64,000 bases of DNA, taken from assembly GCA_027483245.1 (NCBI GenBank), contig JAIXVB010000279.1, positions 9,847 through 73,846 on the forward strand, written 5' to 3'. A program made the position numbers and the translations under genes. Source of the DNA: Verrucomicrobiaceae bacterium (GTDB lineage: Bacteria; Verrucomicrobiota; Verrucomicrobiia; Verrucomicrobiales; Verrucomicrobiaceae). Positions 1 to 26,250 of this stretch are shown piece after piece (the stretch's first letter is position 1; each line of letters opens with the position of its first letter). The notes beneath the pieces are model-generated. The model was not told where the DNA came from and ran no database searches. It worked only from the letters and a program-made list of their open reading frames with translations.

Positions 1-572
1 ATGAGGCGGCGGACGGGGGCCTCCTCCGGGTGGGGAGCGATCCCTTTCTCGTCCCAGGCATAGCCGAAAGGGGCCCGACCTCCGAGGGGCTTGCCGAGCT
101 TCGCGCGGATGGAGACGGAAGCGCGCACCCGGTCCACGATTTCCTCGCGCTCCCACTGGGCCATGGCCGCCACCATGTTGTAGAAGAGTCGCCCAGAGGG
201 GGTGCTGGTATCGATGCTCTCCTGCAGGGAGACCAAGTCGGCGTTATTGGCGCGGAAATAGTCGGAGAAATCCATCAGCTCCCGGGCGTTGCGGGTCAGC
301 CGGGCGAGCTTGGAAAAAACGAGAGCCTGAATGTGCCCACGCTTCACGTCGGCGAGCATTCTCTTCGTTTCCGGATGATCCATGACCGCCTTGCCGCTGA
401 CGCCCGCGAGGTCATACACCTCCGCCACCTCCCATTCCTTCGCAGCGCAGTAGTGCTCGGCACGGGCGCGGTGGTGCTCGGGGCTGTCGCCCTGAGCCTG
501 GTCTTCAGTGGAGACTCGTATCCAGATGCCGACCGGTCTGGATCCCGTTGGAGAAAAAGGCAATGCGGACAT
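1..572 (-). CDS. Large serine recombinase (integrase), 5' part; runs off the left edge
   Basis: Not in the ORF track (no stop in window). Manual minus-strand translation from ATG 572: [25 protein letters not shown]...[10 protein letters not shown]...[35 protein letters not shown]...GRAPFGY, i.e. catalytic RVST motif, resolvase domain and start of the recombinase domain. Confidence 0.93.
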
Positions 573-928
573 TGCTGCATATTATTCAACTTCGGGCCTT
601 TTCAAATAATCCCATGATCTAATTTCATTCTCTCCAGGTCGCTCCAGGCATGCCATTGCTCTCAGGGTTTACACCGCCCAACCCTTGAATATACTAGGTT
701 ATTTACCCACCATCGTTTCGCCACTTTGCGCAATTCAAAGATGGCCAAGGACGGGGCAAAATGAGATATCATGCCGCCCATGCGAGTCATTAAAATGAGC
801 GAGATGAACCCCAAAAACGCAATCTACCGGACGTATTTTTCGACTTTGAGAAACCATTTCGCTCCCAAATCCATCGTTGGACTCGGTGGTTGCTTTGAAG
901 CAGAGGGACAGCTATAAGATATTTTGCT

Positions 929-1864
929 ATGCATGACTTTACATACAGCGGCCATGAGAGTTTCAGCCTGAGAATCAGCTGGCTACCGAAGGCTGTGGCC
1001 GCTTTGGAAAAAGGTGAAGACCCGTTTTCAGATCCTCGTTTTGGGATGACTACACTTGGACTCGGTAAAAACATGATCCAGTCACTTCACTTTTGGGTGG
1101 TGGCAGCCGGCTTGGCCGACAGAACGGACAAAGGTCTGCGATTGACCGAGTTTGCGCAGAAGGTGCTTTGCCGGAAGCGAACCGGGTTCGATCCCTATTT
1201 GGAAAACACCCAGACACTTTGGCTCCTCCATTGGAATCTTTGCCACGGTTGGCTGGAAGGCGAAAAGCGTCGGCGTCCATACGCATGGCACTTCTTTATG
1301 AACATTCTGGCTAACGACGAAATCACGGCAACCGAGGCAATCGACCACTTTGCGGGTGGTCCGGTGGCGTCTGGAAAGGACCTTTCCGCTGTTACTTTGC
1401 GGCAGCATTTCGAAGTCTTCGTCCGCACCTATGTTCAGGGACAACCCGCAGGGCCACGAAGCACTCCAGAAGAAACGCTGGACAGTCCACTGACGACGAT
1501 TGGTCTACTCCGGGAGAACGGGGATCGCAAACTCCCCAATGGCAAGCGTGAAACTGTCTATCGGTTTGTCACCGGCAGCAAGCCGTCGCTCTCCTTCAAA
1601 ACGTTTCGTTACTGCCTTCACGAGTGGTGGGACCATAATCAAGCTGACGAAAAATCCCTTATGGTGCGGCAGATCGCCCACAGAGAAGACAGCCCCGGCC
1701 GATGCTTTCGTTTGCCGGAATCCGCCATCCACAAGATCCTAGTCGACCTGGCACGGGAGTATCCAAAGGAGTTTGAACTCACTGAGTCCAGGAGCCAGCG
1801 CGGCATCAGCCGCAATCTCCGTCCAGGCAGGGACGTGCTTCTCAGTTCAATCTACACTGCGTGA
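929..1864 (+). CDS. sspB: DUF4007 family protein, SspB-like nickase
   Basis: N-terminal FSGHESF-like motif (YSGHESFSLRISWLPKA), LGLGKNMIQSLHFW, FDPYLE..TLWLLHW; first gene of a DUF4007-ATPase-PAPS reductase-desulfurase cluster. Confidence 0.85.
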   Translation: MHDFTYSGHESFSLRISWLPKAVAALEKGEDPFSDPRFGMTTLGLGKNMIQSLHFWVVAAGLADRTDKGLRLTEFAQKVLCRKRTGFDPYLENTQTLWLLHWNLCHGWLEGEKRRRPYAWHFFMNILANDEITATEAIDHFAGGPVASGKDLSAVTLRQHFEVFVRTYVQGQPAGPRSTPEETLDSPLTTIGLLRENGDRKLPNGKRETVYRFVTGSKPSLSFKTFRYCLHEWWDHNQADEKSLMVRQIAHREDSPGRCFRLPESAIHKILVDLAREYPKEFELTESRSQRGISRNLRPGRDVLLSSIYTA

Positions 1865-4800
1865 AACCGATGCCCGCCAAATCCAAGACCACTGCGGTAA
1901 GCAACGGCAGCGCCAACGTCAGGGTCTCCGACCTGATGCATGTCAATCCGCGTTTCAGAAAATCCGTCCAGATAGAGCTGGACTTCCACGACCGTAATTC
2001 GACCTCCGGCTACGTTGCCACGGAGTTCGTCGTCCAAACCTTCAACTGGATACTTCCCGCCTTCGCCAGGGGAAGCACCCAGCGTGCATGGCGCCTCACG
2101 GGTGACTACGGCAGTGGTAAATCCGCATTTGTGCTCGCTCTTGCAAAAGCTGCCTGTGGCAAACAAAGTGAAATTCCCGTCGCCTTGAGGGGAAAAATAA
2201 GTACAGGCCTCCATCCCGTATTTGTAACCGGCGACCGCGAGCCTCTTCACGAGAGCATCGGCAAAGCGGTGATCAACCAGGTCCCCGGCTATTCGAAACG
2301 CCAGGTTCCGTCCAATACCCCACAGATGATAGCACTTCTGGAGAAGGCCCATAAGGACAGTGACCGGGGGATATTCCTTGTGCTGGATGAACTTGGAAAA
2401 AACCTGGAGTATGCGATGATGGAGCCTGCCAGCACCGACGTTTACGTCCTCCAACGGCTGGCCGAAATGTCTTCACGCTCCAACGACAAACCCTTTGTCG
2501 TCATAGCGATCCTTCACATGGGCATTGGCGCTTATACCAACGATTTGGACTCCACCACGCGCAGAGAATGGGATAAGGTGGCCGGTCGTTTCGACGAATT
2601 GCTCTTTCAACATCCGTTCGAACAAACCGTCCAGCTTTGCGCGGAGGCTATCGGGCTGGAAACGGACCGGTTGCCTCCAAGGTTCATTGAAGAAGCTTCC
2701 CGCACCATGGAATGGGCTGTGGAGGATGGTCTTTATGGAAGCGCCCCCGCCCAAACGCTTCGTGAAGTGGCTCCCAGGATTTTCCCTCTTCACCCTGTAG
2801 CCTTGCCTCCGCTAATGAACCTCCTTCGCAGGTTCTGTCAGAACGAGCGTTCCCTCTTCAGCTTCCTATCCGGTCACGAATCTGCCGCTTTACAGGAAGT
2901 CGCCGGACTGGAAATCGAGAAAGCAAGGTTCTTCCGCCTCGCCGATTTATACAACTACGTGCGCCAAAACATAGCGCACACGATGACAAATGGCAGAGCG
3001 ACTCATTGGCGGATCATTGAGTCTGTCGTGAGAAAGGTTGAAGATCCGGAAGAGGTGAATTGTCTGAAGTCCATAGGCATTCTCAATCTGCTTGATGACG
3101 ATGACATGCTCGCGACCCGTCAGATGCTCATCCGAGCGATGGGTGCAAAGACCCCTGGCGAGCAGACCTTCCTGTCAAGGCTAATTGATAGGTTGAAAGA
3201 GAAGAAACTTCTCTTCGAGCGCAGCGCTGTCCGCGGCTTCGCTTTGTGGCCGCACAGCAGTGTTCACCTTGATGATGCATTCGCCGACGCGAAAAAAGAA
3301 ATTGGAGCTCATACCGAGCCCATGCGCTTGGTTGCTTCCAAATTGGAAGGCCGCCAGATCGTAGCCCGACGCCATTATATCGAGACCGGCAACCTCCGTC
3401 ATTTCGAGCTGCAATTCCTTCCAGCCAAAGATTACGAACGTTTTTGCGGGGCTGGCCCCAAGGCGAGCTATGGGAATGCGGACGGATTCGTCGTCATCTT
3501 CCTTCCGGAAAATGAACGCGAACATCGTCAGATGCTCAATACCCTGAAAAGTGGGGCTGTTTATCCTAGTGATTCAGTGCTTGTAGGGCTTTCCCGCCCG
3601 CCGCTCGACCTGCTCGGCATCTCGAAAGACCTTCAAGCCTGGCAGTTCCTCCAAACCAATCTGAAAGAACTTTCGTCAGACGAATTCGCCCGGCGTGAAC
3701 TTCGGGGCCAAATCCGTATTGCCAAGGAGCGTCTCGATCATCAGATCGACCAGCTTCTGGGATGGAATCATAACCCGCGTCTCGTCTCGTGGTTCCGCAA
3801 AGGACACCCTGACGAACTCGAGCCAGATGGTCTGAGCAGTAAGCTGTCGCAGATCTGCGAGGAAATTTACAAGCGGTGTCCGAAGATCACCAACGAGTTG
3901 ATCAACCGCCGGGTCACCAGCTCTGCCGCTTCCCGCGCACGAACTGCTCTCATTGACGCCATCGCGATGAAGCCCGGCGCCGAGTATCTGGGCATGGATG
4001 ATTCAAAGAATCCGCCGGAAATGGCGATCTACCTTTCTGTCCTAAGAGCCGGCAACCTTCACATAAAAGGGGAAGACGGGATTTGGAAATTCGTTTTTCC
4101 GTCAAAGGCAGACGATCACTGCAGATTGCTCCCTGCTTTTGAAACCATCGAGAAGATCCTGAAACAGCACGACGCGCAGCGGGTCAAAGTTTCCGCCATC
4201 ATCGATGCCTTGCGGGACGCACCTATTGGAGCCCGAGATGGACTCATCCCCCTCATCCTTGCTCTTTACATCGCTGGACGGCGAAGCCAGACGGCCATTT
4301 TTGAAGACTCCACCTACACTCCCAATCTTGATGGTGATACTGCCCAACGACTGACGAAGGAGCCCGAGGCTTTCCAACTCCAGCACTGCGCCATTGAAGG
4401 GGACCGGATGGATACCTTTGATGCCATCGCCAAGGTCTTTAATGTCGAGAGGAGCTCCGATCCCGAGGTTCTAGACGTGGTCCGCCCGCTGATGGAGTTT
4501 GTTGCACGTTTGCCTGAATACAGCCGCTCCACGAAGAACCTCAGCAAAGAAGCCATCCGCGTCCGGACTATTCTCCTCGCGGCCCGAGACCCCGTCCAGT
4601 TGATCTTCCGCGATCTCCCTGAAGCACTACAGGGAGAAGGCGACAAGGTGCCTCTTGGGACTAAGGTCGCCCACTTGGTCGGTGAACTCAGTAGCAGCTA
4701 CGACGCGCTGCTTAGCCGCCTTTCCGCTTCGATCACCGAAGCATTTGGCACCAAAACAAAAATAGGCGACTTCCGCAAAGAACTTTCTGCACGATCCAAA

Positions 4801-5238
4801 GCTACAGCAAAACACGTGGTGGAAAGCGACCTCAAGTCTTTCGTCCTTCGCATCGGAGACGACGGACTGGACCTCCGGCAATGGCTCGAATCGATGGCCA
4901 ATCACCTTAGCAAGAAATCAGCAGTCCGGTGGGGCGACCCGGATGAGGAGGTATTCAACCAAAGGCTCATCGCATTCACCCAACGGATGCTCAGGACTGA
5001 AGCCGCCCAAGGCGACGTTACAAGGACCAAGATGGAAGGCGCTGGCGACCGGCTTGTCCGTGTTATACTCACCCAACCTGATGGTCACGAGCACGGTCAG
5101 CTTTTCTATTGGAGCGAAGCCGAGGAAGCCAAGGTTTCCGAGATAGAGCAACAAATCACCGCATTGATTCACAAACATGGGCGCGCCGGACTTGGTGCGA
5201 CTGCAAAGGCCCTCTGGGCGCATCTCCGAGACCAATGA
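1861..5238 (+). CDS. sspC: SspC-like P-loop ATPase (1125 aa)
   Basis: Walker A GDYGSGKS, Walker B FLVLDELGK, FCQNERSLFSFL motif; GTGA overlap with the upstream stop. Confidence 0.83.
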   Translation: MKPMPAKSKTTAVSNGSANVRVSDLMHVNPRFRKSVQIELDFHDRNSTSGYVATEFVVQTFNWILPAFARGSTQRAWRLTGDYGSGKSAFVLALAKAACGKQSEIPVALRGKISTGLHPVFVTGDREPLHESIGKAVINQVPGYSKRQVPSNTPQMIALLEKAHKDSDRGIFLVLDELGKNLEYAMMEPASTDVYVLQRLAEMSSRSNDKPFVVIAILHMGIGAYTNDLDSTTRREWDKVAGRFDELLFQHPFEQTVQLCAEAIGLETDRLPPRFIEEASRTMEWAVEDGLYGSAPAQTLREVAPRIFPLHPVALPPLMNLLRRFCQNERSLFSFLSGHESAALQEVAGLEIEKARFFRLADLYNYVRQNIAHTMTNGRATHWRIIESVVRKVEDPEEVNCLKSIGILNLLDDDDMLATRQMLIRAMGAKTPGEQTFLSRLIDRLKEKKLLFERSAVRGFALWPHSSVHLDDAFADAKKEIGAHTEPMRLVASKLEGRQIVARRHYIETGNLRHFELQFLPAKDYERFCGAGPKASYGNADGFVVIFLPENEREHRQMLNTLKSGAVYPSDSVLVGLSRPPLDLLGISKDLQAWQFLQTNLKELSSDEFARRELRGQIRIAKERLDHQIDQLLGWNHNPRLVSWFRKGHPDELEPDGLSSKLSQICEEIYKRCPKITNELINRRVTSSAASRARTALIDAIAMKPGAEYLGMDDSKNPPEMAIYLSVLRAGNLHIKGEDGIWKFVFPSKADDHCRLLPAFETIEKILKQHDAQRVKVSAIIDALRDAPIGARDGLIPLILALYIAGRRSQTAIFEDSTYTPNLDGDTAQRLTKEPEAFQLQHCAIEGDRMDTFDAIAKVFNVERSSDPEVLDVVRPLMEFVARLPEYSRSTKNLSKEAIRVRTILLAARDPVQLIFRDLPEALQGEGDKVPLGTKVAHLVGELSSSYDALLSRLSASITEAFGTKTKIGDFRKELSARSKATAKHVVESDLKSFVLRIGDDGLDLRQWLESMANHLSKKSAVRWGDPDEEVFNQRLIAFTQRMLRTEAAQGDVTRTKMEGAGDRLVRVILTQPDGHEHGQLFYWSEAEEAKVSEIEQQITALIHKHGRAGLGATAKALWAHLRDQ

Positions 5239-6071
5239 CGACGAAATCTCCATTCAATCCCGGAGGGAAGCCGGTCCGCCACATCCTGAGCCTTTCCGGC
5301 GGCAAAGATTCAGCAGCGCTGGCGATCCACATGCGCGACCGCATTGAGAACATGGAATACATTTTCCATGACACCGACAAAGAGCTGCCGGATACCTACG
5401 ACTACCTTAACCGCCTTGAAGACTACCTCGGCAAACGGATCGTCAAAACAACCTTTGGAACGACGTTCGACGATCTGCTGCGACGTTATGGTGGCATGCT
5501 ACCGTCAAATCATAGACGATGGTGCACACGGATGATGAAGTTAAAGCCGTTCGAGGACTATATCGGCGAGGATGTTTGCATCAATTACGTGGGCATCCGC
5601 GCCGATGAAGCCCGCATCGGATATGTTAGTCACAAACCAAACATCCAGGCGGTCTTTCCATTTCGGGAAGACGGCATTGATTATGAAGGAGTTCAACGAA
5701 TTCTAACAGATTCAGGGATCGGCATGCCTCCCTACACAGAATGGGGGCGAACACGATCAGGCTGTTTCTTCTGCTTCTACCAACAGAAAATAGAATGGGT
5801 TCGACTCAAACAACAATACCCTGAATTATTTGAGCAGGCCAAGGCTTACGAGAAGCCAAATCGAGTCAACGGAAATGTATTTTACTGGTGTCAGGACGAG
5901 CCCCTCACCGAACTAGAAAAGCCTGAGCGGATGGCGGAGATTCAAAATAAATGGGAGATTCAGCAGGCACGAGCGGTGCAGAGCCGCAAAAATCTGCCTC
6001 TTGTGACTTCACTGGCAGGTTTACAGATTCATGAGCCAGCTTCTTCAGGCTGCCTGATATGTCATCTATGA
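5235..6071 (+). CDS. sspD: PAPS reductase family protein, SspD-like
   Basis: PP-loop SLSGGKDS, RWCTRMMK, RSGCFFCF, C-terminal CLICHL; ATG 5235 overlaps the sspC stop (ATGA), so preferred over the ORF-track start 5109. Confidence 0.87.
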   Translation: MTTKSPFNPGGKPVRHILSLSGGKDSAALAIHMRDRIENMEYIFHDTDKELPDTYDYLNRLEDYLGKRIVKTTFGTTFDDLLRRYGGMLPSNHRRWCTRMMKLKPFEDYIGEDVCINYVGIRADEARIGYVSHKPNIQAVFPFREDGIDYEGVQRILTDSGIGMPPYTEWGRTRSGCFFCFYQQKIEWVRLKQQYPELFEQAKAYEKPNRVNGNVFYWCQDEPLTELEKPERMAEIQNKWEIQQARAVQSRKNLPLVTSLAGLQIHEPASSGCLICHL

Positions 6072-6084
6072 TTGTAACCAGATA

Positions 6085-7269
6085 ATGCCTTCCAAATTGA
6101 TATACCTAGACAATAATGCCACGTCGCGAGTTTACGATGAAGTGGTCGCGGCTATGGCACCATATTGGTCGGATATTTTCTTTAATCCCTCGTCTGAGGC
6201 GGGTGAATTGCTTGGAGCGCAAGATGCTGTTTCAAGTGCGAAAAGAGAGCTTGCCACCCACCTTGGAGGAAGCCCAGAGGAATTCATTTTTACATCTGGA
6301 GCAACAGAGGCAAACAACTGGGTCCTGAAATCAGTATGCTCCGATTTCCTTCTACAGCGTGGCGGCTGCACTGTGGTAGTTTCAGCGGTTGAACACCCCT
6401 CGATTCGCAGCACGGCGATGGCTCTTGCGGAGAGCGATCAGCGCATCAAATGCATAGAAGCACCGGTGACATCAGATGGAGTGGTAGATCTCGCAAAGCT
6501 AGAGAAGCTAATCACCCCGGAGACTTGCATTGTCTCAGTCATGATGGCCAACAATGAAAGCGGCGTGATTCAACCCCTGGCAGAAATCGCAAAGCACGTG
6601 AAGGCACTCAATTCCAATTGTCTGATCCACACTGATGCCACTCAGGCAGTGGGTCGTATAGTTATTGACTTGGACGACGATCTCAGGTCCGTTGACTTGC
6701 TTTCGTTGTCTGTGCATAAAAGCCATGGCCCAAAGGGTATCGGTGCACTATTTATTCGAAACGGTATTAAGCTCACTCCTTTAATCCACGGTGGCGGCCA
6801 GCAAGTCGGTCTACGTTCTGGCACAGAGAATCCAGCTTTGGCAATGGGACTGGCAAAGGCCATCGCACTCACGGCTGATCGCCGAAAGCTTCAGGGCACA
6901 TCAGCAAAGGTAATGTCCACGAAAGAACTCTTTGAGACCAGATTGCAATCTGTCGTAGATGGAATTGGAATTCTGGGCAAAACCGTTGCACGCCTCCCAA
7001 ACACCAGCCTGCTGCTCCTGCCTGGGCTCAACGGGGGGGATGTTGTCAGCAGCCTCCTCCAAGAGGGCATCATAGTCTCCACCGGATCGGCGTGCGACAG
7101 AGGAAGTGATGCGCCCTCACACGTTCTCCTGGCAATGGGTATGGATTATAACGATGCTTTTGACGCGATTCGAGTCTCGATGTCGTCTGAAACCGAAGTG
7201 GTTGAAGTCTTTGCTCTGATTTCAGCCCTTCAAAAGCTTGTTACTTCACACAGCCTGCGTAGTATTTAA
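6085..7269 (+). CDS. sspA: PLP-dependent cysteine desulfurase (IscS/SspA/DndA-like)
   Basis: YLDNNAT, FTSGATEANN, HTDATQAVG, SVHKSHGPKGIGAL (PLP lysine), STGSAC (catalytic Cys); sspA name assigned from context. Confidence 0.9.
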   Translation: MPSKLIYLDNNATSRVYDEVVAAMAPYWSDIFFNPSSEAGELLGAQDAVSSAKRELATHLGGSPEEFIFTSGATEANNWVLKSVCSDFLLQRGGCTVVVSAVEHPSIRSTAMALAESDQRIKCIEAPVTSDGVVDLAKLEKLITPETCIVSVMMANNESGVIQPLAEIAKHVKALNSNCLIHTDATQAVGRIVIDLDDDLRSVDLLSLSVHKSHGPKGIGALFIRNGIKLTPLIHGGGQQVGLRSGTENPALAMGLAKAIALTADRRKLQGTSAKVMSTKELFETRLQSVVDGIGILGKTVARLPNTSLLLLPGLNGGDVVSSLLQEGIIVSTGSACDRGSDAPSHVLLAMGMDYNDAFDAIRVSMSSETEVVEVFALISALQKLVTSHSLRSI

Positions 7270-7272
7270 TTT

Positions 7273-9711
7273 ATGGGTATAGAATTTAAAGCAAGAGTTT
7301 TGCTCGAGCTTGGAGCAGAGTTGATAAGCTCTGACGCAGTGGCATTTTACGAACTGATCAAGAATGCGATCGACGCCGGCTCTCCATCGGTCACTGTCTC
7401 AATACATGTAGCGTTACAATTCTCGGCGTATCAGGCACTACAAGAAGAACTGGCAGGGCACAGCCTATCCGGCTTCGATGGCAGAATTTTTCACGAAAGG
7501 GTCTGCGCATCCATGGAGGCCGACGCCCAAGAAGAAGTACGAGACGACTTTTTAACCACTTTCGGACACCCCCAAAGCGCGAAAGAAGCTAAGAAAGCAC
7601 TGACAGAGGCCTATTTGCGAGGAAGTTATATAGTCGTAGCTGACCATGGCCATGGAATGAATTCCGAGACCCTTCAGAAGGGGTATCTTACAATCGGAAC
7701 CCCTATGCGGCTTCTGTCAAAAAGTCGTTCAAATGAAGCCAATTGGAGCCACGAATCTGCACTCGGTGGGCAAACACTTGGCGAAAAGGGAATTGGTAGA
7801 CTTGCTGCAATGCGCCTGGGCCATTTCGTCCATGTGCGCACAGGCATGCAGGCGGATGCTGAAAATAAAAACACCCATTGGATGGAGCTCGAATTAGATT
7901 GGCGACCAATCTTCAAGGATCCAAATCTTGATTCATCTGCTTTAGATTATGAACCCCAACTGGGCTCAAAGAAGAATTCGCCGAAAGAGCACGGAACAAC
8001 GCTGACCATAAGGAGCCTGCAAGGTGATTGGCATACTGACAAAATTAGAGAGCTAGCAGAGACTCATCTTGCAAAGCTTTCCGATCCATTCGCTTCCGAT
8101 TTTATTCACGAACTGCTCAAGATTGAACTGCAGGGGGCAAAGGTTCCGTTGCCCGAGTTTGAAAATAACAAATTAAAAAAGGCAGACGCAATCTGCAAGG
8201 CACGGCTTCGCAAGGTGAAGGAGAATGCACTTCCCGACTCACCAGAAAAATTGGAGTTATTTATCGAGGTGGACTACCAACACTATCACGGTGCGCATAG
8301 GATCTGGAATCTCAGTGGCGAACACCTTGCAAGCTGCATCAAGGACCCCCCAGGTCGCCGGAAGAAGCCGAAGGCAAACGAATTGCTCCCCAACAGTGAG
8401 GCAGTCTTAGCATCGCTCCCAAAGCTCGGGCCATTCGAAATGGAATTTTATTGGTTCAACCGAGGTCGCATCATGCGAGAGGAGTTGGACGAATGGGAGC
8501 TCATCAAGGGCTTTGTGCGCAACTGGAGTGGCGGCTTATTGGTATACAGAGACGGATTTCGTGTATATCCATACGGCTCGCCTTCGGATGATTGGCTCGA
8601 TCTTGACCGGACCGCGCTGTCGGGTTCGGCCTACAAGCTAAATCGCGCTCAAATTATCGGTTTCCTGCGCATTTCTCAACAGGGCAATCCGGCTCTTCAG
8701 GATCAGACGAACCGCGAAGGATTCCGCGACTGTCCTGAAAAGGAGGCCTTACGCAGATTGCTACGGCATGTGATTGTCACGCACTGCCGACAGTTTCTGG
8801 AAGATACGCTAAAAAAGAATCTAAAGGAGCCGCCGGAGGAGATTGAATCGCTTGAGAAGAGAGTTAGTGACTCAGAGACCGTCGCTACAACAAAATTGTA
8901 TGAGCTTCAGAAAAGGGTTCCGGCCGAAGCTGAGCCAATCAATGAAATCATCCACCAGATTGGTGAAATTAGAGCAGCCTGGGAACGGGCAAAATCGACC
9001 ATCAAGGATCAAGAATCTGAGCTTGAGCAGTATGTTCATCTGGCTGGTGTTGGACTACAGGTTGAGTTCATCGCCCATGAACTCAGCAGAGTGACAGCCG
9101 ACGCTCTCAGATCCTTGAGAGATGGCGACGTATTGAAGGATGAATCGATCCGCCTCGGTTTGGAAATGCAGCTTAAGACGTTAGACAAGCGAATCAGGGT
9201 TCTAGATCTCCTTAGCATTCCTGGTCGGCAACGAAAGGGGATGGTCGAAATCGAAGACGTTGTGAAACTGCTCACTGAAATTCATGATGCGAAGATCAAA
9301 AGGCATGGTGTCGAGATTTCGATCATAAGATCATCCGATAAACCGTTTCGTGCTAAGGTAGAACAAGGCCAGATATTACAGATTTTGGACAACCTCTTTA
9401 GCAATTCATTTTACTGGCTCAATAATCGCTTTGATCGCTCAAAAGTGCCGACGATCACAATCACCCTGGACCCGCAGCAGAGATTGATCTCATTTGAAGA
9501 TAGCGGTCCAGGAGTGCAGCCTGACATGCAAGATGATATCTTCAAACCTTTCGTAACCACTAAACCCCCAGGGGATGGCCGAGGGCTTGGCCTTTTTATC
9601 TCCCGTAGGCTTGCCGAATACAATGATGCCACATTGGATCTTGGCCCTCCGGATCAGGATGGCAAGTTCCGTCGATTTGATCTTTCACTCAAGAATACGA
9701 AGAAGCCATGA
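7273..9711 (+). CDS. MORC/MutL-like GHKL ATPase fused to a C-terminal histidine kinase
   Basis: N-terminal GHKL boxes ELIKNAIDA, DHGHGM, GEKGIGRLA; C-terminal H-box FIAHEL, N-box QILDNLFSNS, G1 DSGPGV, F/G2 FKPFVTTK..GRGLGLFIS. Confidence 0.85.
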   Translation: MGIEFKARVLLELGAELISSDAVAFYELIKNAIDAGSPSVTVSIHVALQFSAYQALQEELAGHSLSGFDGRIFHERVCASMEADAQEEVRDDFLTTFGHPQSAKEAKKALTEAYLRGSYIVVADHGHGMNSETLQKGYLTIGTPMRLLSKSRSNEANWSHESALGGQTLGEKGIGRLAAMRLGHFVHVRTGMQADAENKNTHWMELELDWRPIFKDPNLDSSALDYEPQLGSKKNSPKEHGTTLTIRSLQGDWHTDKIRELAETHLAKLSDPFASDFIHELLKIELQGAKVPLPEFENNKLKKADAICKARLRKVKENALPDSPEKLELFIEVDYQHYHGAHRIWNLSGEHLASCIKDPPGRRKKPKANELLPNSEAVLASLPKLGPFEMEFYWFNRGRIMREELDEWELIKGFVRNWSGGLLVYRDGFRVYPYGSPSDDWLDLDRTALSGSAYKLNRAQIIGFLRISQQGNPALQDQTNREGFRDCPEKEALRRLLRHVIVTHCRQFLEDTLKKNLKEPPEEIESLEKRVSDSETVATTKLYELQKRVPAEAEPINEIIHQIGEIRAAWERAKSTIKDQESELEQYVHLAGVGLQVEFIAHELSRVTADALRSLRDGDVLKDESIRLGLEMQLKTLDKRIRVLDLLSIPGRQRKGMVEIEDVVKLLTEIHDAKIKRHGVEISIIRSSDKPFRAKVEQGQILQILDNLFSNSFYWLNNRFDRSKVPTITITLDPQQRLISFEDSGPGVQPDMQDDIFKPFVTTKPPGDGRGLGLFISRRLAEYNDATLDLGPPDQDGKFRRFDLSLKNTKKP

Positions 9712-11777
9712 ATTTCGATGATCAAATTCGCCTATTCAGCGAAAGTGTAGTCATTATTGATGACGGTTTTGCTCCTGTTAGCCTTGACCTGATCGACGGC
9801 GATGATTGGGCCGCGCTCAGAGACGCAGCCGCCGGCGAAGCAGAGAAATGGGCAAGGGTCCAAGATGCATATTTTCCGTCTTTGAAATCCGTGATGGATT
9901 TGAAACGCGACAATGCGAAGCTAGCTCGAGCGTGGGAGTTGTATGATGAGAAGCCAGCCGACTTTTCGATTCTCGATCCAATCTTCCAGAAGCTAGTCGC
10001 TAAAAGACATATCTCAATTCTGCCTTTGCGGCCAATCATTGAGTTATTTCGAGATGAACTCAAGCTAACGGTATGCTGTCATCCAGACATCCGCAGCGCT
10101 TCTGATGATATCAAGCGCTCGAAGTTGGTCTTCTTGGATTTCTATCTGTATCAGCAATCAACAGCCTCCACGGCCATTTCTGACATTGCAGATTTCAATG
10201 GGCTTTTGTCCGATAAGATTTTAGAGAACAGTGTTCCTCGTGATCGCTTCGTATTCTTGATTTCGACTCAGCTTCCGTCTGGGTCAGATATCGAAAACTT
10301 CAGAAAGGCGGCAAAAGTAAAAGCAGCTTTTTTTAAATCCGTATCGAAGAATGTCCTCACCAAGGCCTGGCTGACTATTGAGCTTGAGAAGAGATTACAG
10401 CGGTATCAAGATCTCCACCGCTTTTCGTCTTATTTAGACGTATTCTCAAAACAAATGGAAAATGTCACTAAAGGCTTGCGAGCCGATTTGGAGGCCCTTG
10501 AACTTCATGACCTTTCTATTCTTCATCACATGCGATTGAAGGCCGATTCCGAGAATCTAGGATCGTATATGAGCTGGATCATGTCTGAATCGCTTGCGGC
10601 GCGCATTCGCGCGTCAGCTCCGATGCTCATTGCATCTCAGGAAGTTAGCATTGTCAACCTTCCTCCACTTCATGGGATGCTGTCTCCAAACCACGTCTTG
10701 TTTGAATTGTTTTCCGAGATCTCCTTCAGTGTTCCGAATCACGATCCTAATGTCATCAAAATCGGGTTCGGTGATGTATTTGTGCCTGCAACGAGACGAG
10801 AGTTTTTCAAGCGATCATCAACAGATGAGGCAACGAAAACCGAGCAACTGAAAACCACTGCGTCAGGCAACTCCACGGCAGTAAAAGCTGCAAACGAAGA
10901 TGAATCGGCGGCGGCAGTGCATTCGCTCAATAAGGCAACATCTGGTCCTCAGGCAGGTCAGGAGCTCCTTTTAGTTATTGCCCCCGCCTGTGACTTGCAA
11001 CGTTTGCCAGACGATTATGAAGTCCTTTGCGTTAGAGGCAACATCACCATTAGGACACCAAAGCTTGTCGATCTGCTTGAGCAGAAAATCTCCTTGGGAA
11101 AAGATAAAGATTCGGGCAGATATAAAAATCTTCTGCGAATTAAGGAAGGCCTTGATACAGATTTTCTGCTGTTGGAGTGGCATCCGGAAAAGATTACTAC
11201 ATTGCAAGGAATCCACTTGCAGGGGAGTTCACATTCAAGGCTTGCGCGCCTGAATGAACTATTTTGTCAGGAAGTGAAAGAGGAAGCGCTAAGACAAGTC
11301 GGTCGCATTGGAGTGCCAGTCGATCCAGCCTTCAGCATTGGACTTGGCTGCACTATCGCTTACACTGTAAGAAAGAAGGGCGTCATCCACATTGAGGTGC
11401 CTGATGAGCACATTGTATCAGGAGTGTTTACGACAGGTAATTCTAGCAATCCTCAAACAATAATCCTTTCCGACGATTTTATTGAGGCACTTGATAAAGA
11501 GATCGCTAAAGTCGATACGGCCGCCAAGTATGACAAAGACTTGGAGGAGGTAAGTGTAAAATTTGCTTCGGCCAGGGCGGAACTTGCCATAATGGCGGGC
11601 CAAGGGCTAGCTCTTGCCAAGAATGAACGCAAGCTTGCTAAGGAGAAGTTTACTGTTCGCTATGTTCATGAGTTTGTACGAGATTCTCTAGATAGTGGGT
11701 TTTGTGGGATATGCTTCTATCCACGCGGCATGGTCAGGGATAAGCCCGATAACGCTCACATAAATGTAGCCGCCTAA
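9708..11777 (+). CDS. Receiver-domain protein with a large uncharacterised C-terminal region
   Basis: VVIIDDGF (acidic pair), VFLDFYL (phosphoacceptor Asp), FLIST, FFKSVSK; LVIAPACDLQR motif downstream; ATGA overlap with the kinase gene. Confidence 0.72.
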   Translation: MNFDDQIRLFSESVVIIDDGFAPVSLDLIDGDDWAALRDAAAGEAEKWARVQDAYFPSLKSVMDLKRDNAKLARAWELYDEKPADFSILDPIFQKLVAKRHISILPLRPIIELFRDELKLTVCCHPDIRSASDDIKRSKLVFLDFYLYQQSTASTAISDIADFNGLLSDKILENSVPRDRFVFLISTQLPSGSDIENFRKAAKVKAAFFKSVSKNVLTKAWLTIELEKRLQRYQDLHRFSSYLDVFSKQMENVTKGLRADLEALELHDLSILHHMRLKADSENLGSYMSWIMSESLAARIRASAPMLIASQEVSIVNLPPLHGMLSPNHVLFELFSEISFSVPNHDPNVIKIGFGDVFVPATRREFFKRSSTDEATKTEQLKTTASGNSTAVKAANEDESAAAVHSLNKATSGPQAGQELLLVIAPACDLQRLPDDYEVLCVRGNITIRTPKLVDLLEQKISLGKDKDSGRYKNLLRIKEGLDTDFLLLEWHPEKITTLQGIHLQGSSHSRLARLNELFCQEVKEEALRQVGRIGVPVDPAFSIGLGCTIAYTVRKKGVIHIEVPDEHIVSGVFTTGNSSNPQTIILSDDFIEALDKEIAKVDTAAKYDKDLEEVSVKFASARAELAIMAGQGLALAKNERKLAKEKFTVRYVHEFVRDSLDSGFCGICFYPRGMVRDKPDNAHINVAA

Positions 11778-11820
11778 ATACCCAAGCATAGTTTGCGTCA
11801 CGCCAAGCACGAAAAGGAAT

Positions 11821-14800
11821 TCATCCTCGTTTAGGCTTCCGCACGGCTCCCGCCAGAATCCTTGCAGCCTCTGCCTCACGCTCCTTCATATCCTCTGCGG
11901 AAATCGAGACGACCGTTGTTTTGATCTTCCATCCCTTGTGCATCGCCGATTTTTCGGAGGGTTTGATGCTTTCCACTGGAAGTTGAGGGACAAGAATAAA
12001 TTCCTGTAACCGGGCGACAAAGACCTCTGGAATGAAAAACCCCAAGAGTTTCGCACTTTGTACAGCATACGTGTGCATTGCTGTTGCCTCTAGCTTCTTG
12101 AGCTTGGCTGCATCTGATCCCACGACGGCGACCATGGAAACCCCGGCTCGCAGGCACTTGCCGATGTTCTTCAATTCATAGCCGAGCGTGTTGGTGACTG
12201 TTACTTCGACCGCAAGAGAAATTCCATCCTTTTCCAAAAGGAGGTCCGTGCTTTCGAGTGTGCCGGGAAGCTGCTTTTCGATGGTCGCGCGGAAACCGAG
12301 CGATTCGGCGGTGAGCTTCAATTCCCGTTGGATTTCCGTGTGCAGCTCTCCGCCGATGCCAAGGTTTCGCGGAACTGATGCCTTTTCCCGTTTCGTTGGA
12401 ACCTCCTGGGATTCTGGCGGCATCTCCGCAAATACTGATTGGGGTTCTCTGGATTTCTCGACGGACGATGGCGGAGGCCCTTGAGGAGGGGATTCCGAGG
12501 CAACGAGCGGGGAAGGTCGACTGGTCACAGGCGGGCGGGATTTCTCCACGGCGGCTGCCGCTTCCACCCTTTCGGCTGATATCTCAGCTTTGGGCCGCCC
12601 ATACTGCCTGCGCGAGCTCTCGATCATTGCCAGGCGCCTTTCTTCCAGATGTCCTTCATCGTCAGGTGCGGAGGCAGACACGCTGAGATTGAAGTCCGCG
12701 TCGCTCCGCCCGATCCTGCAGATGGCTTCGCCAACTGAGAGGCTCATGAGCGCCTTGGAATCAAAATTCGCGAAGCCCGCCACCAGTGATTGCGCATCCT
12801 CGTCGCCCGGACGGAAAACGATGCGCGTGCAGGTGTTGGTTAGCACCGAGCTGGCCAACTCCGGATGTTGCCTCAATTGAGCCATGCTTTGCTGGGCGAG
12901 CGTCATCCCCATCCGATATTTTCGCACACCCGAAAGAAGCTCAGCCATGGAAGGTGTCGCAAAGTTCTGGAACTCGTCAATATAGAGCCAAAACGGCTTC
13001 CGATCCTTCTCCGCGAGCGACTGGCGACTCATGGCCGCCTGCTGGAACTTCGCCACGAGGAGGCTGCCGAGGAGATAAGAATTCTCGCGGCCCATCCGCC
13101 CTTGGGGTAGGCAGGCCAGTAGTATCTTTCCGCCGTTCATGATCTCGGCAAAGTCGAGATTGTTCGACTTTTCTGAGACCATGTGTCGGATGGATTTGGG
13201 CGAGAGAAACGATTCCAGCCGGGTCAAGATAGGGCCTATCGATTTATTGCCGCCAAGCTGGGGGAACGCCTTCTCCCAATAGAAGACGGCCTCTGGGTCT
13301 TCCACCGTCTTCAGGAAGTCTGACCGGAAATCCTTGTCGAGCAGAAAGCGTCGAAGGTCGGCGAGGGTGCCGCCAGTGCTGCTTTCAAGGAAGGCAAGGA
13401 TGGCGTTCTGAAAGACGCTGTTCATCTGGTCACCCCAGCTGGTCGAGAGCCGTGCGAAGATCGAAACCAAGTCCGAGGCAAGTAAGGTCTTTTCAAGATC
13501 GCTGTGGGCTGACAGGATGTTGAACCCGATGACATACTCCTCATCTGAAGGGTCAAGCAATATCACATCATTGATCCGGTGGTCGGGAATGACCCCGAGA
13601 ATTTTCTCGATCAGGTCTCCATGGGGGTCTAGCACGCCCACTCCCGCGCCTGCTTCGATGTCCTGCCGGATCAGATTAAAAAGCAGGGTAGATTTACCGG
13701 TGCCTGAGGCACCGATGACATGGGTGTGGCGGAAACGGTTCTCGTCGCTGAGGAAGACGTGATTGGAAAGGCCGCCATGCTCATTGCGGCCAAGCTGAAG
13801 AGAGGAGGGCTGTCTGGCGGATTCTGGAGCGGCCCGAGTCATGCCGCTGTCCGACCTCAGGAGCGCAGCCGTGAGAGGATCTTCGGGGAAGCGCACCAGC
13901 CAGGACATCTCATCACGGTTGAGGAGCATTCCGGTCCGCCTAGACTGGCGGAGGATCAGGTCGCGCTCGTGATCCTTCCCCTCATAGCTATCATTAGAGA
14001 GTGGAATCAGGCGGTTACCCGTATTGCCCGTATCCGCAACGAATCCCGATAGCATCTCCGCGAGGATCTTCCAGGCGCGCTCGGAGTCATCGGCTGAAGA
14101 CGCGAACCGCACTACCGTCGCATGAAGCGGCCTTGAGAACTTTGCCTTCGCCCCGGCTAGAAGCTCTGGCCGGTTCACGAAGAAGGGGCCTCCTTCACCG
14201 TCAGATACCGCCTGGAGCGCCTCGCCGCCCCAGGCATGGCGCACGGGCTCGAAAATGACCTGCAGGATGCCAAGCTCCGACTCATCAAGCGAAGCCAGGA
14301 CGGAAAGCAGCGGGAAATAAGGGTCAGAGCGTGGCAGCCTCAGAGGCAGCATGAATTCTCGCTCAAGGCCGCATTCGCAGATCGCGAACGAGCTGCCTCT
14401 CTGCTGCCAGGCATCCGTCAGCGCGTCATCGGTCGCAGTCACCACCATGCCGGGAAAAAGCAGGGTTAGCTGCCGTTCGACGAGCGGAGCATCATCAATG
14501 CTTGCAGCAATCTGGAGCAGCGCTTCGCCTCCCATCCCCAGAATCTCGAAGCTCACGGGCTCGCCGCAAAGATAGATAGAACTCAGGAACTGCTCCATGT
14601 GCGCTGCCAATCCTTTGCGCTCGCGGGGAAGCGATATCTGGAATTCTACTATAGCCTGCCGTTCCCACGGGAAAAATTGCGGGGCCTCGTCTACCTCTGG
14701 ATCAGCAGGTTCTTCAGAGTCGGATATTGCCCGTCCGAGCCGCTCCATAAAGCCGCTGAAAAAGGTATGCCGTCGGCCATCATCCTTGACCTTTGGCTGA

Positions 14801-14931
14801 GGAAGGTGATATCCGGGGAAAGATCGGAACGGAGGCTCGATGGACACCGGTTCCGGGCACACATGTCCGCCGCGTCCGGGAAGCTCGAAGCGATAGAATT
14901 GCCCGGTAAGCTCCTGTTCCAGGGTGGTCAT
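11821..14931 (-). CDS. VirD4/TraD-like coupling ATPase with Pro-rich linker and C-terminal PD-(D/E)XK-like domain
   Basis: RHTHVIGASGTGKST (Walker A), LYIDEFQNF (Walker B), RKYRMGMTLAQQ; tail HTEIQREL..GF..IEK..TDLLLEKDGISLAVEV. Confidence 0.8.
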   Translation of the reverse strand: MTTLEQELTGQFYRFELPGRGGHVCPEPVSIEPPFRSFPGYHLPQPKVKDDGRRHTFFSGFMERLGRAISDSEEPADPEVDEAPQFFPWERQAIVEFQISLPRERKGLAAHMEQFLSSIYLCGEPVSFEILGMGGEALLQIAASIDDAPLVERQLTLLFPGMVVTATDDALTDAWQQRGSSFAICECGLEREFMLPLRLPRSDPYFPLLSVLASLDESELGILQVIFEPVRHAWGGEALQAVSDGEGGPFFVNRPELLAGAKAKFSRPLHATVVRFASSADDSERAWKILAEMLSGFVADTGNTGNRLIPLSNDSYEGKDHERDLILRQSRRTGMLLNRDEMSWLVRFPEDPLTAALLRSDSGMTRAAPESARQPSSLQLGRNEHGGLSNHVFLSDENRFRHTHVIGASGTGKSTLLFNLIRQDIEAGAGVGVLDPHGDLIEKILGVIPDHRINDVILLDPSDEEYVIGFNILSAHSDLEKTLLASDLVSIFARLSTSWGDQMNSVFQNAILAFLESSTGGTLADLRRFLLDKDFRSDFLKTVEDPEAVFYWEKAFPQLGGNKSIGPILTRLESFLSPKSIRHMVSEKSNNLDFAEIMNGGKILLACLPQGRMGRENSYLLGSLLVAKFQQAAMSRQSLAEKDRKPFWLYIDEFQNFATPSMAELLSGVRKYRMGMTLAQQSMAQLRQHPELASSVLTNTCTRIVFRPGDEDAQSLVAGFANFDSKALMSLSVGEAICRIGRSDADFNLSVSASAPDDEGHLEERRLAMIESSRRQYGRPKAEISAERVEAAAAVEKSRPPVTSRPSPLVASESPPQGPPPSSVEKSREPQSVFAEMPPESQEVPTKREKASVPRNLGIGGELHTEIQRELKLTAESLGFRATIEKQLPGTLESTDLLLEKDGISLAVEVTVTNTLGYELKNIGKCLRAGVSMVAVVGSDAAKLKKLEATAMHTYAVQSAKLLGFFIPEVFVARLQEFILVPQLPVESIKPSEKSAMHKGWKIKTTVVSISAEDMKEREAEAARILAGAVRKPKRG

Positions 14932-14934
14932 GGC

Positions 14935-15639
14935 TCATCGTTCCAATCGGCGGAGTAGGGAAGCCAGCGCCGGATGGGCCTCCGGCCACGCTTCCTTGAA
15001 CTCTACCTGCTTGATGCCGCCCGCCGCCATCATCTCCTCGACGGCGCGCTTCACAAGGGCTTCCGTCTGATCCAGGAACATGACACGTGTGTCATAGCGG
15101 TAGTAGGTTTCCTTCCGGACCAGTTCATAGAGCGTGCCGAAAATCGGGATGCGAAGAAAGAACGCGTCCAGGTCATGGAGGCCCAGCGTCAGCGCATTCC
15201 TCATCAACATGAACCCACCGATCAGGCTGAAAAGGATGATAGCGCTACCCGCGATGACGCCGAAGAGCTGGACGTAGCCGAAAACGACGGCTGCGATGGC
15301 GGCAAGAATGACCAGCAATTCCCAAACCATGAGAGAGACGGGGATCTGAGCCTGCCTAGCTGAGAAGAACCAAGCCTCGCCAAAGGCAGCGGAGCAAACA
15401 TCGAAGACCAGCCTTTCGCGGCGGATGCGGAGATACTGGCGGCGAGGCGAGAGCGTCCCGCCTTCGCTGAATTCCTCGCGCGTGACCTCGATGCCAGGAA
15501 ACTGCCTTTCCTGAAGCCAGTCTTCGATCCGGCTGTAGAACTCGTCCGTGCTGAACGAGCCGCGCTCGATGGGGGTGTACCAGTATTTGATCACCTCCGG
15601 CCTTTTGCGCCTCCAGATGCCGAATGTCGGTAGGTCCAT
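14935..15639 (-). CDS. Hypothetical membrane protein
   Basis: 234-aa ORF with two central hydrophobic helices; 3 nt upstream of the ATPase start. Confidence 0.7.
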   Translation of the reverse strand: MDLPTFGIWRRKRPEVIKYWYTPIERGSFSTDEFYSRIEDWLQERQFPGIEVTREEFSEGGTLSPRRQYLRIRRERLVFDVCSAAFGEAWFFSARQAQIPVSLMVWELLVILAAIAAVVFGYVQLFGVIAGSAIILFSLIGGFMLMRNALTLGLHDLDAFFLRIPIFGTLYELVRKETYYRYDTRVMFLDQTEALVKRAVEEMMAAGGIKQVEFKEAWPEAHPALASLLRRLER

Positions 15640-15648
15640 AGGATCAGT

Positions 15649-15915
15649 TCATGAGGGTTTGGATGCGTCGCGGATGACCTTCCAGAGTTCGATACCCAGC
15701 CCGTCTGCCATCCTGATAAGAGTCACCAGCGTCGGACCTCGCATCCCACGTTCTACGTAGCTGACCATTTGCTGTGACAATCCGACAGAGTCGGCTAAGT
15801 CGGTCATCGTCATGCCTTGGCGCAGGCGCTCTTCCTTCAGCAGGCGAGCCACCTCGGAGCATATTGCAGTTTCATTGCGGTCCGACGGCACTCTTATTGA
15901 ATAGCGGATTCGCAC
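15649..15915 (-). CDS. XRE-family HTH transcriptional regulator
   Basis: RLLKEERLRQGMTMTDLADSVGLSQQMVSYVERGMRGPTLVTLIRMADGLG. Confidence 0.88.
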   Translation of the reverse strand: MRIRYSIRVPSDRNETAICSEVARLLKEERLRQGMTMTDLADSVGLSQQMVSYVERGMRGPTLVTLIRMADGLGIELWKVIRDASKPS

Positions 15916-15948
15916 TTGACGAAAACCTAACTATAGTGAGATTGGAAC

Positions 15949-16194
15949 ATGGAATTCCTTCGTCGCCTCGGTCCTGATCCGCACGAAAACGGGAAACAAA
16001 CTCCCGCGCTGGATGGTTGCCCTGATCTGTGGGAGATGGCCGACGGCGACATCGCTGTCATCGGCATCGACATCACAGACGAATTCCGCGGACACCTTCC
16101 TGCCACGGCTGGCTGTGGCCCAGATGAGCGCATCGTGAGGCTACCTCGTGATATCGTGCTGGCTGCAAAGAAGGACATCATCTCGCTAAGCTAG
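15949..16194 (+). CDS. Small hypothetical protein
   Basis: 81 aa, GCPDLWEMADGDIAVIG...CGPDERIVRLP; divergent from the XRE gene. Confidence 0.65.
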   Translation: MEFLRRLGPDPHENGKQTPALDGCPDLWEMADGDIAVIGIDITDEFRGHLPATAGCGPDERIVRLPRDIVLAAKKDIISLS

Positions 16195-16275
16195 GCGCTC
16201 GCAGGTTGACGTTTTAGTCTTTGAATTGCAGTCACATGGGATCTCTTCTGTTGTAGCCGGAATAGATGCGTATTG

Positions 16276-16310
16276 AAAAAACCCCGACCAGACTGAGCTG
16301 ATCGGGGCTG
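16276..16310 (-). terminator. Intrinsic terminator after radC
   Basis: Minus strand CCCCGATCAG-CTCAGT-CTGGTCGGGG followed by T6, 14 nt after the stop at 16325. Confidence 0.7.
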
Positions 16311-16324
16311 TTTGATGCGGGAGT

Positions 16325-17245: not shown

Positions 17246-17267
17246 TTCGTTTCGAACGGGTAGCTGA

Positions 17268-17872: not shown

Positions 17873-17884
17873 GGGAAGAAGCTG

Positions 17885-18928: not shown

Positions 18929-19050
18929 GATAAAGAACTGGGTTTGATGGAATGGCTTGGGGTTGAAGACAAAAAAGCCACTCAGCAAAGGCTGGTGTGG
19001 CTTCCTTGAGGCCAATTGTATCACGACCTTTCCGACGATGACCGGACCCC

Positions 19051-19059
19051 TGTGGATAA
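19051..19059 (-). promoter_or_regulatory. DnaA box
   Basis: Perfect TTATCCACA on the minus strand, upstream of the primase. Confidence 0.4.
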
Positions 19060-26064: not shown

Positions 26065-26250
26065 AGTCGGTCTGCGCGCAGCCTAGCCTTACATGGCCGC
26101 ACCATAGCAATAGCCTGCTGCCCCCGGGCAATGTCATTTGACAAAAGGCACGCCAGTATCGCGTCGGATGCGCCCCGCCATAAAACACTACCAAGCTGTC
26201 AGGCGATCCATCATGCCAAAAAATTCGCAAAGCCATCCTTCTTCAATTTC

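Follow-up and report, generated by a model that had tools for sequence, protein, structure and literature searches.

Which protein reads the phosphorothioate (PT) marks of an Ssp system when neither of its known restriction partners, SspE and SspFGH, is encoded beside it? The question is raised by a six-gene operon of a Verrucomicrobiaceae bacterium (assembly GCA_027483245.1, contig JAIXVB010000279.1, positions 9,847 to 73,846 of the forward strand; this whole stretch of 64,000 nucleotides is called the window), in which the ssp genes are followed by a histidine kinase and a receiver-type protein, here named REC-X. It extends well beyond this locus. Neither sspE nor sspFGH accompanies 2,211 of 2,678 sspBCD loci (83.9%), and both undiscovered restriction partners and non-defence roles have been raised for these orphans (Wang et al., 2021; PMC8092258). 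Whether such loci are epigenetic systems or have undiscovered effectors is a standing question, for which the cassette described here supplies a concrete candidate partner that is also very common. As a variant of Ssp, this cassette is real, ancient and widespread, with a conserved core of sspB-sspC-sspD-kinase-REC-X and a movable sspA, and its kinase-receiver pair is probably the missing partner of many orphan Ssp systems.

In the window, sspB-sspC-sspD-sspA-kinase-REC-X form six consecutive plus-strand genes between positions 929 and 11777 (Table 1), on which the listing of open reading frames (ORFs), the family scans and the gene calls on an overlapping public contig agree. The junctions, read from the sequence, are tight. 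The sspB stop codon overlaps the sspC start if this is the GTG at 1861, or lies 5 nt before it if it is the ATG at 1870, while ATGA overlaps join sspC to sspD and the kinase to REC-X, and gaps of 13 nt and 3 nt separate sspD from sspA and sspA from the kinase. The six genes are a single translationally coupled operon, which bears out what a sequence-only reading of this DNA had described from the 3-nt and ATGA spacing, and the PADLOC models whose use it had suggested recognise SspA, SspB, SspC and SspD, the complete gene set of the SspABCD module. Promoter-like sites in the region upstream of sspB are no commoner than in shuffled sequence. The slot of sspA between sspD and the kinase is unusual, being shared by the window and the Haloferula locus L001 alone (L-numbers designate the loci and contigs compared). 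The G+C content is ~0.55 in sspB and sspC, 0.47-0.50 across sspA-kinase-REC-X and 0.57-0.59 in the flank (6000-12000 compared with 1-6000 and 12000-20000). Because of this drop, and because the same block stands behind SspH in L001, the analysis suggests that sspA-kinase-REC-X moves as a sub-module. Near-identical DNA is found neither in E. coli genomes nor in plasmids.

A search for the known partners at this locus is negative. SspE (DUF262 plus DUF1524/HNH-type) has no PADLOC or Pfam match in any scanned ORF of the window, the scan covering every ORF above 372 aa, and SspF, SspG and SspH are likewise unmatched in the scanned ORFs, including those in the 52 kb that follow the operon on its right. 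Each unscanned ORF has 372 aa or less, too small for any of the four proteins. As a positive control, the PADLOC model of SspH, an FtsK/HerA-type protein of ~1800 aa, gives E=0 on the related locus L001. The earlier statement that the window holds no SspE or other effector stands for the scanned ORFs of 300 aa or more, the left flank being covered to ~1.9 kb.

The kinase, compared in an alignment of 18 homologues (47-78% identity), carries two GHKL domains separated by a conserved middle region. The motifs of the N-terminal GHKL domain are invariant (E27/N31/D34, D124xGxG, G170EKGIGR, G241-T242), and the domain matches PF13589 (5.8e-11). Its closest likeness is to the corresponding domain of the BbrUII/HgiDII restriction enzymes (NCBIfam NF050001, 1.5e-13), with a weak similarity to Hsp90-type domains as well. 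The middle-domain motifs WFNRGR, YRDGFRVYPYG, DDWLDLD and DQTNREGFRD are also invariant. Against PDB sequences, neither the N-terminal 560 residues as a whole nor residues 200-560 within them give a match. The C-terminal part is of a familiar kind: the family profile matches PDB histidine kinases over residues 546-801 (down to 8e-18), and the library scan of the 812-aa protein also returns histidine-kinase families. In the DHp domain, the stretch A-H602-E-L-S-R of the H-box AH602ELSRV is invariant, H602-E603 included, and so are, in the catalytic domain, the N, G1, F and G2 boxes (N707/N711, D743xGPG, F757, G769RGLGL). The translation shows no hydrophobic segment at its N-terminus. Judged by these motifs, the protein is apparently a soluble, catalytically competent histidine kinase, and its putative sensor is a MORC/paraMORC-like GHKL ATPase module.

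REC-X is more enigmatic. The full 689-aa protein has no Pfam, NCBIfam or PADLOC match, even at E<=10, and Pfam Response_reg itself does not match it; a REC-X profile run against PDB sequences returns spurious apolipoprotein matches only. The receiver domain emerges from conservation (31 aligned homologues) and from the predicted fold. In the AlphaFold model (pLDDT 77.6), the invariant D18-D19, D144, S186 and K214 fall at the C-terminal ends of beta1, beta3, beta4 and beta5 (K214 after beta5), which is the canonical signature DD / D / T-S / K of the (beta/alpha)5 receiver fold, and D144 is the predicted phospho-acceptor. A helical insertion of ~90 residues lies between beta1 and beta2. When the full-length model is searched with Foldseek, receiver domains are the only consistent matches (HupR REC 2vuh, prob 0.97; VbrR REC 7e90_B, prob 0.94, TMt 0.66), the one other being a weak match to MazF. 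The label "receiver protein" given by the sequence-only reading therefore fits the first ~215 residues but not the other ~470, which comprise the helical region and a C-terminal domain without a fold match.

The helical region ends in a low-complexity, poorly conserved linker (residues 363-411), beyond which the C-terminal domain, modelled alone, reaches a pLDDT of 86.7. Its invariant residues are P426-x-C428-D429-L430-x-R432, E517, E522-x-K524 and R533-x-G535...D539. The model finds no match at E<=0.001 in PDB or BFVD, and the library and fold searches recognise no output domain, be it a helix-turn-helix (HTH) DNA-binding domain or a known enzyme, anywhere in residues 217-689. Several identities for this domain can be set aside. 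A PD-(D/E)xK reading of D429...E522xK524 is ruled out, as E522 and K524 lie in a predicted helix ~90 residues past D429 and not in an adjacent strand. A caspase/CHAT-like Cys-His dyad is ruled out too, as H267, the one His that is invariant, belongs to the helical middle region, and as the fold is rich in beta strands, not alpha/beta. A toxin of MazF/CcdB fold is not claimed, the C-terminal model reaching TM 0.38-0.41 at low probability. The family is nevertheless large and uniform: among 1.84 billion representatives, the REC-X profile matches 723 clusters, of which 572 reach E<=1e-10; almost all have 600-750 aa and the same layout, and ten distant members examined have no Pfam match whatever.

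The linkage of the pair to ssp genes is not due to chance and shows in three independent samples. In a sample of 54 metagenome loci anchored on the kinase, at identities down to ~29%, sspD lies directly upstream of the kinase in 44 of the 46 testable loci (the exceptions are one locus with SspH upstream and one short contig), REC-X lies directly downstream in 39/39, and the complete trio of sspB, sspC and sspD is found in 30/30; no further gene is common to more than four loci. Anchoring on REC-X in genomes gives the same picture, with the kinase directly upstream in all eight loci, five of which have sspB-sspC-sspD upstream, while one is convergent, one decayed and one the Haloferula arrangement SspH-sspA-kinase-REC-X. 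Every PLSDB record with a strong kinase homologue has sspD within 15 kb (16/16), and the kinase occurs in 16 of the 62 sspD-bearing records (26%). Had the pair rarely been linked to ssp genes, the case made by the sequence-only reading would have been refuted; the opposite is found (44/46, 39/39, 30/30 and 16/16). Decayed and truncated contigs apart, no pair without ssp genes is seen. The decayed cassette, in Pararobbsia silviterrae (L002, 8973-12028), retains an intact REC-X, a kinase fragment of ~100 codons and an inverted sspB fragment.

Within this conserved frame, sspA varies in position, standing upstream of sspB or downstream, or being absent, and in two loci (L048 and L066) the pair sits between sspC and sspD. 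The hosts belong to the Alpha-, Beta- and Gammaproteobacteria (Pseudomonadota), the Verrucomicrobiota and the Chloroflexota. Median identities to the window proteins over 23 loci are 59% for SspD, 48% for the kinase, 31% for SspB, 27% for SspC and 26% for REC-X, so that REC-X diverges as fast as SspB and SspC.

That the pair replaces the known partners, as the phrase "instead of SspE or SspFGH" in the sequence-only reading implied, is true of the window and of most loci, SspH being present in only two of the 20 complete cassettes whose flank spans 6 kb or more, but not of the loci L001, L065, L066 and L068, which carry both. In Chlorohelix (L066), two hypothetical genes and then an SspH-type gene come after sspA-sspB-sspC-kinase-REC-X-sspD; in Polaromonas (L068), two hypothetical genes and an SspH-type gene precede kinase-REC-X, which is convergent with sspD-sspC-sspB; Sinorhizobium (L065) and Haloferula (L001) also combine the pair with SspFGH-type genes. 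Because several loci carry both, the pair is not strictly an alternative to SspFGH.

A diverged form of the cassette occurs in Acinetobacter baumannii. The Ssp locus of global clone 2 is found in ~60% of sequenced genomes of this species, and 5,518 of 5,530 A. baumannii Ssp loci lack sspE (PMC12421847); in 211 Acinetobacter strains, ssp genes have histidine kinase genes as neighbours (PMC7464106). This literature mentions the kinase in passing and speculates on a new variant, and neither paper analyses the pair. In strain VB1190, the order is kinase, a 637-aa protein and convergent sspD-sspC-sspB, with no sspE, in agreement with these publications. The kinase has two GHKL domains and is 30% identical to that of the window. 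The 637-aa protein is too diverged for the REC-X hidden Markov model (HMM) or hhalign, and the hhalign comparison with the REC-X profile, in which only the phospho-acceptor strand matches, counts as no more than a motif-level hint. On inspection by eye, DD16-17, the acceptor strand DLLIVD149, T179/S180, K209 and a motif T-Q-P-C-D-L-S can still be recognised in the protein, and UniRef labels this A. baumannii counterpart of REC-X "Response receiver domain-containing protein". The likeness to the window thus consists of a two-GHKL kinase, a receiver-type protein with the P-C-D-L motif and sspD-sspC-sspB, whereas the A. baumannii locus is convergent instead of collinear, lacks sspA and has a receiver protein beyond HMM detection. 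Identical copies of this kinase and of its partner are present on at least 1000 contigs each.

The closest described relatives of the pair are the HEF_HK (PF19191) and Response_reg_2 (PF19192) families, soluble kinases of HATPase_c_3, DHp and HATPase_c domains with divergent receiver partners, which are linked in 91.6% of cases and enriched beside type II restriction-modification systems and C5 methyltransferases (Bellieny-Rabelo et al., 2021; PMC8011034). The sequence-only reading was correct in placing known MORC-type kinase/receiver pairs in restriction-modification neighbourhoods. PT, Dnd and Ssp go unmentioned in that paper. The window kinase, soluble and of the same three-domain layout, agrees with how HEF_HK is defined, and the pairs share an adjacent divergent receiver with Asp-Asp, Asp, Thr/Ser and Lys plus loop insertions, linkage to a DNA-modification system and paraMORC affinity. 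They differ in the modification, which is C5 or N6 methylation there and phosphorothioation here, and in the partner, the window family being of ~650-700 aa with a large extra C-terminal domain, unlike Response_reg_2. The Ssp-linked kinase of A. baumannii matches PF19191 below threshold (E=0.0023, 18.8 bits against a cut-off of 24.1). Because the layout is the same, Pfam matches are lacking in the window and the A. baumannii kinase matches its model below threshold only, the two sets are related but distinct.

Two methylase-linked loci serve as controls. On a Bacteroides finegoldii plasmid (L069, 6476-11578), a histidine kinase is followed by a REC-only protein (209 aa), an HNH protein and an N6 methyltransferase. 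In Campylobacter armoricus pCA639-1 (L070, 6680-11130), a histidine kinase and a response regulator (340 aa) stand beside a convergent C5 methyltransferase, with no separate nuclease; the response regulator shares the strand-P-x-C-D-[LI] and R-x-G-x-P motifs with the output domain of the window. Weak kinase matches are also found by tblastn on 41 Campylobacter plasmids (~23% identity in the one examined). An hhalign comparison of the REC-X profile with the Polaromonas partner (E=0.0019, low probability) is treated as a motif-level hint.

The cassette can be compared with four other systems. SspABCD-SspE has the same modification module with its partner encoded alongside, but SspE is, in the papers that cite its description, a DUF262/DUF1524-type PT-stimulated NTPase and nickase, whereas here a putative two-protein His-Asp phosphorelay ends in an unrelated output domain (Xiong et al., 2020, as cited in PMC8092258 and PMC12839542). 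SspABCD-SspFGH also shares the modification module, and SspFGH-type genes lie beside the pair in some loci, but the window and most cassettes lack SspFGH, and the kinase-receiver pair contains no FtsK/HerA ATPase (Wang et al., 2021; PMC8092258). The GHKL-Shedu protein VcSduA (PMC12137116) and the paraMORC families (Iyer et al., 2008; PMC2292703) share an N-terminal MORC-like GHKL domain proposed to gate an effector; there it is fused to a PD-(D/E)xK nuclease, whereas here it is fused to a histidine-kinase core that would transfer phosphate to a separate protein. BREX type 4 (PMC12839542; PMC12914056) has in common DUF4007, PAPS-reductase and BrxC-like homologues, PT self-marking and a read-out other than SspE, but the window cassette lacks PglZ and BrxL, and BREX type 4 lacks the kinase-receiver pair.

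The gene content permits a mechanism to be proposed. SspA (IscS) and SspBCD would place single-strand PT marks, with 5'-CpsCA-3' as the site expected of the module, on the host chromosome, as is established for the family. The MORC-type ATPase and the middle domain may act as an ATP-driven sensor, either of unmodified or incoming DNA or of the engagement state of an SspB/C complex, and this sensor would control the autophosphorylation of His602 by the C-terminal catalytic domain. The phosphoryl group would then pass from His602 to Asp144 of REC-X, and phosphorylation might free the C-terminal domain (Cys428-Asp429, Glu517/Glu522/Lys524) for a response, in which the released domain would most likely attack nucleic acid or otherwise arrest the invader or the cell. 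The sequence-only reading had proposed a PT-sensing defence variant. That interpretation is supported, and within it we infer the defence function, PT production, the signal that the kinase senses (PT included), the phosphotransfer and the effector activity.

Taken together, the evidence tips slightly towards the operon being a PT-based Ssp defence variant with the kinase-receiver pair as its read-out or restriction arm. An effector role for the pair is favoured because most loci carry no other restriction candidate, because the methylase-linked pairs are organised in parallel, one of them without a separate nuclease, because the GHKL domain of the kinase resembles the ATPase domain of BbrUII/HgiDII, and because the cassette lies within a mobile element. 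For REC-X in particular, it is favoured because no library detects a DNA-binding output domain, because the large extra domain has invariant polar and Cys residues, and because the protein diverges at the pace of SspB and SspC. The fuller version, in which the pair is the restriction arm of a third major Ssp class, with the MORC-type ATPase reading the DNA state and phosphotransfer activating a Cys-Asp effector of new fold, is possible, if somewhat short of an even prospect. Several observations weigh against an effector. The pair coexists with SspFGH in L001, L025, L065, L066 and L068, so that it need not be the restriction arm. Fold searches, BFVD included, recognise no nuclease, protease or toxin fold in the C-terminal domain, whose sole resemblance is a weak MazF-like one (TM 0.38-0.46, prob 0.16-0.87). 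At E<=10, the window kinase has no match to PF19191, a model confirmed to be in the library by the sub-threshold A. baumannii match, and REC-X has none to PF19192, whose presence in the library has no positive control; the likeness of the output domain to the Campylobacter response regulator is at the level of motifs only (hhalign E=0.006, probability 6%). Finally, the known sequence to the left of sspB extends for only ~1.9 kb, and an effector could be encoded further left.

The same lack of a nuclease fold fits a role in which the pair regulates the modification arm: the kinase would monitor DNA or sulfur/PT status, and the receiver would tune SspBCD activity or PT density by protein contacts, for example by limiting SspB nicking or by coupling PT to replication, which would make these loci "solitary" epigenetic Ssp systems. 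The embedding of the pair in the modification operon, between sspC and sspD in L048 and L066 and directly after sspA in the window, suits this role, the coexisting SspFGH could then be the true restriction arm, and non-defence roles have been proposed for orphan sspBCD (PMC8092258). Yet PT marks are made in E. coli by characterised SspABCD modules that have no pair of this kind (PMC8092258; Xiong et al., 2020, as cited there), and ~470 conserved residues outside the receiver, with invariant polar and Cys positions, exceed what a simple adaptor needs. The absence of other candidate restriction genes from most cassettes and the same-layout pairs that adjoin methyltransferases without a separate nuclease tell in the same direction, and regulation of the modification arm appears rather unlikely. 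The pairs found with C5 methyltransferases and with N6-methyltransferase/HNH systems (PMC8011034) also lend themselves to the idea of an autonomous defence or abortive-infection module that has no need of PT and is co-inherited with sspBCD in defence islands, as do the G+C of 0.47-0.50 in sspA-kinase-REC-X against 0.55 in sspB and sspC and the recurrence of that block behind SspH in L001, which suggests modular shuffling. This is improbable in view of the near-obligate, collinear adjacency to sspD at identities down to ~29% and across three phyla, the overlapping start and stop codons, the presence of sspD in every PLSDB record with the kinase and the lack of pairs without ssp genes outside decayed L002 and truncated contigs. 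Least probable of all, and quite remote, is an accessory sensor that serves SspFGH encoded, in window-like loci, elsewhere in the genome. SspH does adjoin the pair immediately in L001, L060, L065 and L068, and the short left flank of the window leaves room for it, but the rarity of SspH among complete cassettes, the A. baumannii Ssp loci reported without a known restriction partner (PMC12421847) and the 52 kb free of SspF, SspG and SspH to the right of the operon all argue otherwise.

The cassette has received no more than passing notice in the literature and has no definition in defence-system catalogues. A full-text search that paired Ssp with histidine kinase, response regulator or GHKL returns no paper describing it, a reappraisal of PT systems mentions neither histidine kinase, MORC nor receiver (Rakesh, Aravind and Krishnan; PMC10853773), and PADLOC has no model for the kinase or REC-X. 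The candidate pair is nonetheless present in about one quarter of the sampled plasmid-borne sspD loci and in the Ssp locus of A. baumannii global clone 2, the main clinical clone, and it makes the question of orphan sspBCD directly testable, including in this clinically dominant lineage. If the pair is the partner proposed here, a role would be assigned to a widespread class of MORC-type histidine kinases with receiver partners, and phosphorelay signalling would be added to the logic of modification-based immunity. Should it be the restriction arm, an immune system based on DNA modification would for the first time be found to be gated by a two-component phosphorelay; a considerable part of the orphans, which make up ~84% of sspBCD loci, would be explained, among them the locus fixed in A. 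baumannii global clone 2, and the principle would extend to the methylase-linked kinase-receiver pairs.

Table 1. Coordinates of the operon, the domains of REC-X and the adjoining features in the window.
Feature	Position	Strand	Assignment
sspB	929-1864	+	Pfam DUF4007 PF13182 7.8e-57; PADLOC SspB 2.8e-90; DNA-nicking/target-recognition subunit of Ssp
sspC	1861/1870-5238	+	BrxC/PglY-like ATPase; PADLOC SspC E=0, 1119.6 bits, residues 32-1049
sspD	5235-6071	+	PAPS-reductase-like ATP pyrophosphatase; PF01507 PAPS_reduct; PADLOC SspD 3.1e-111
sspA	6085-7269	+	Class V aminotransferase / cysteine desulfurase; PF00266 Aminotran_5 1.1e-61; PADLOC SspA 5.5e-104
Kinase, 812 aa	7273-9711	+	HATPase_c_3 PF13589 residues 117-197; HATPase_c PF02518 residues 700-798
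REC-X, 689 aa	9708-11777	+	Receiver, helical region and C-terminal domain
REC domain, residues 1-~216	9708-10355	+	Invariant D18-D19, D144, S186, K214
Helical middle region, residues ~217-409	10356-10934	+	Invariant Y233, H267-D268, Y287, E294, R301
C-terminal output domain, residues 410-689	10935-11777	+	Beta-rich core and helical hairpin
Best sigma-70-like promoter match 5' of sspB	668-695	+	10/12 positions; weak evidence
Large serine recombinase gene, 3' part	1-572	-	Resolvase PF00239 and Recombinase PF07508; 503 aa, L063 9-1520
TrwB/TraG/VirD4-like ATPase, 1036 aa	11821-14931	-	Convergent to operon; mobile-element context, outside conserved cassette

The cassette sits in a mobile element. 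Its left boundary is the serine recombinase gene, divergent from sspB and seen in full on the overlapping Logan contig L063. A plus-strand ORF at 30-617 (195 aa) has no family match in library scans and is probably spurious. To the right, minus-strand genes of mobile type occupy 11821-19024 and encode the 1036-aa ATPase, a 234-aa orphan, an XRE-family HTH protein, a RadC/JAB protein and a DnaG-like primase, whose domains also match PADLOC DRT primase models; none of these genes is conserved in other ssp-kinase loci. The 1036-aa ATPase is ruled out as an SspH analogue, having no SspH match and no homologue in 62 related loci. Its weak match to PADLOC mad8/HerA does not indicate membership of MADS either: the match is confined to the generic P-loop region of HerA/TraG, and another P-loop ATPase of HerA/TrwB type (473 aa, 30360-31781, minus strand; mad8 6e-20), 16 kb from the first, matches equally. 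Scans for tRNA genes and direct repeats reveal no tRNA and no convincing att repeats at the element borders. An imperfect 25-nt direct repeat (84% identity) is found at 19047-19071, just upstream of the primase gene, and at 29370-29394, where it runs into the 3' end of ORF 29384-30319, a minus-strand reading frame that directly follows the second ATPase gene; it contains TGTGGATAA, the complement of a perfect DnaA box.

Further along the window, a 923-aa protein (26131-28902, plus strand) with immunoglobulin-like domains and a 1414-aa protein (43428-47672, minus strand) with GAF as its sole recognisable domain have no defence-system match. The segment 52000-64000, of low G+C (0.44-0.47) and strong negative GC skew, may be a separately acquired toxin or cell-surface locus; within it, a 1942-aa protein with an RHS repeat match (55202-61030, minus strand) is followed by a family 9 glycosyltransferase.

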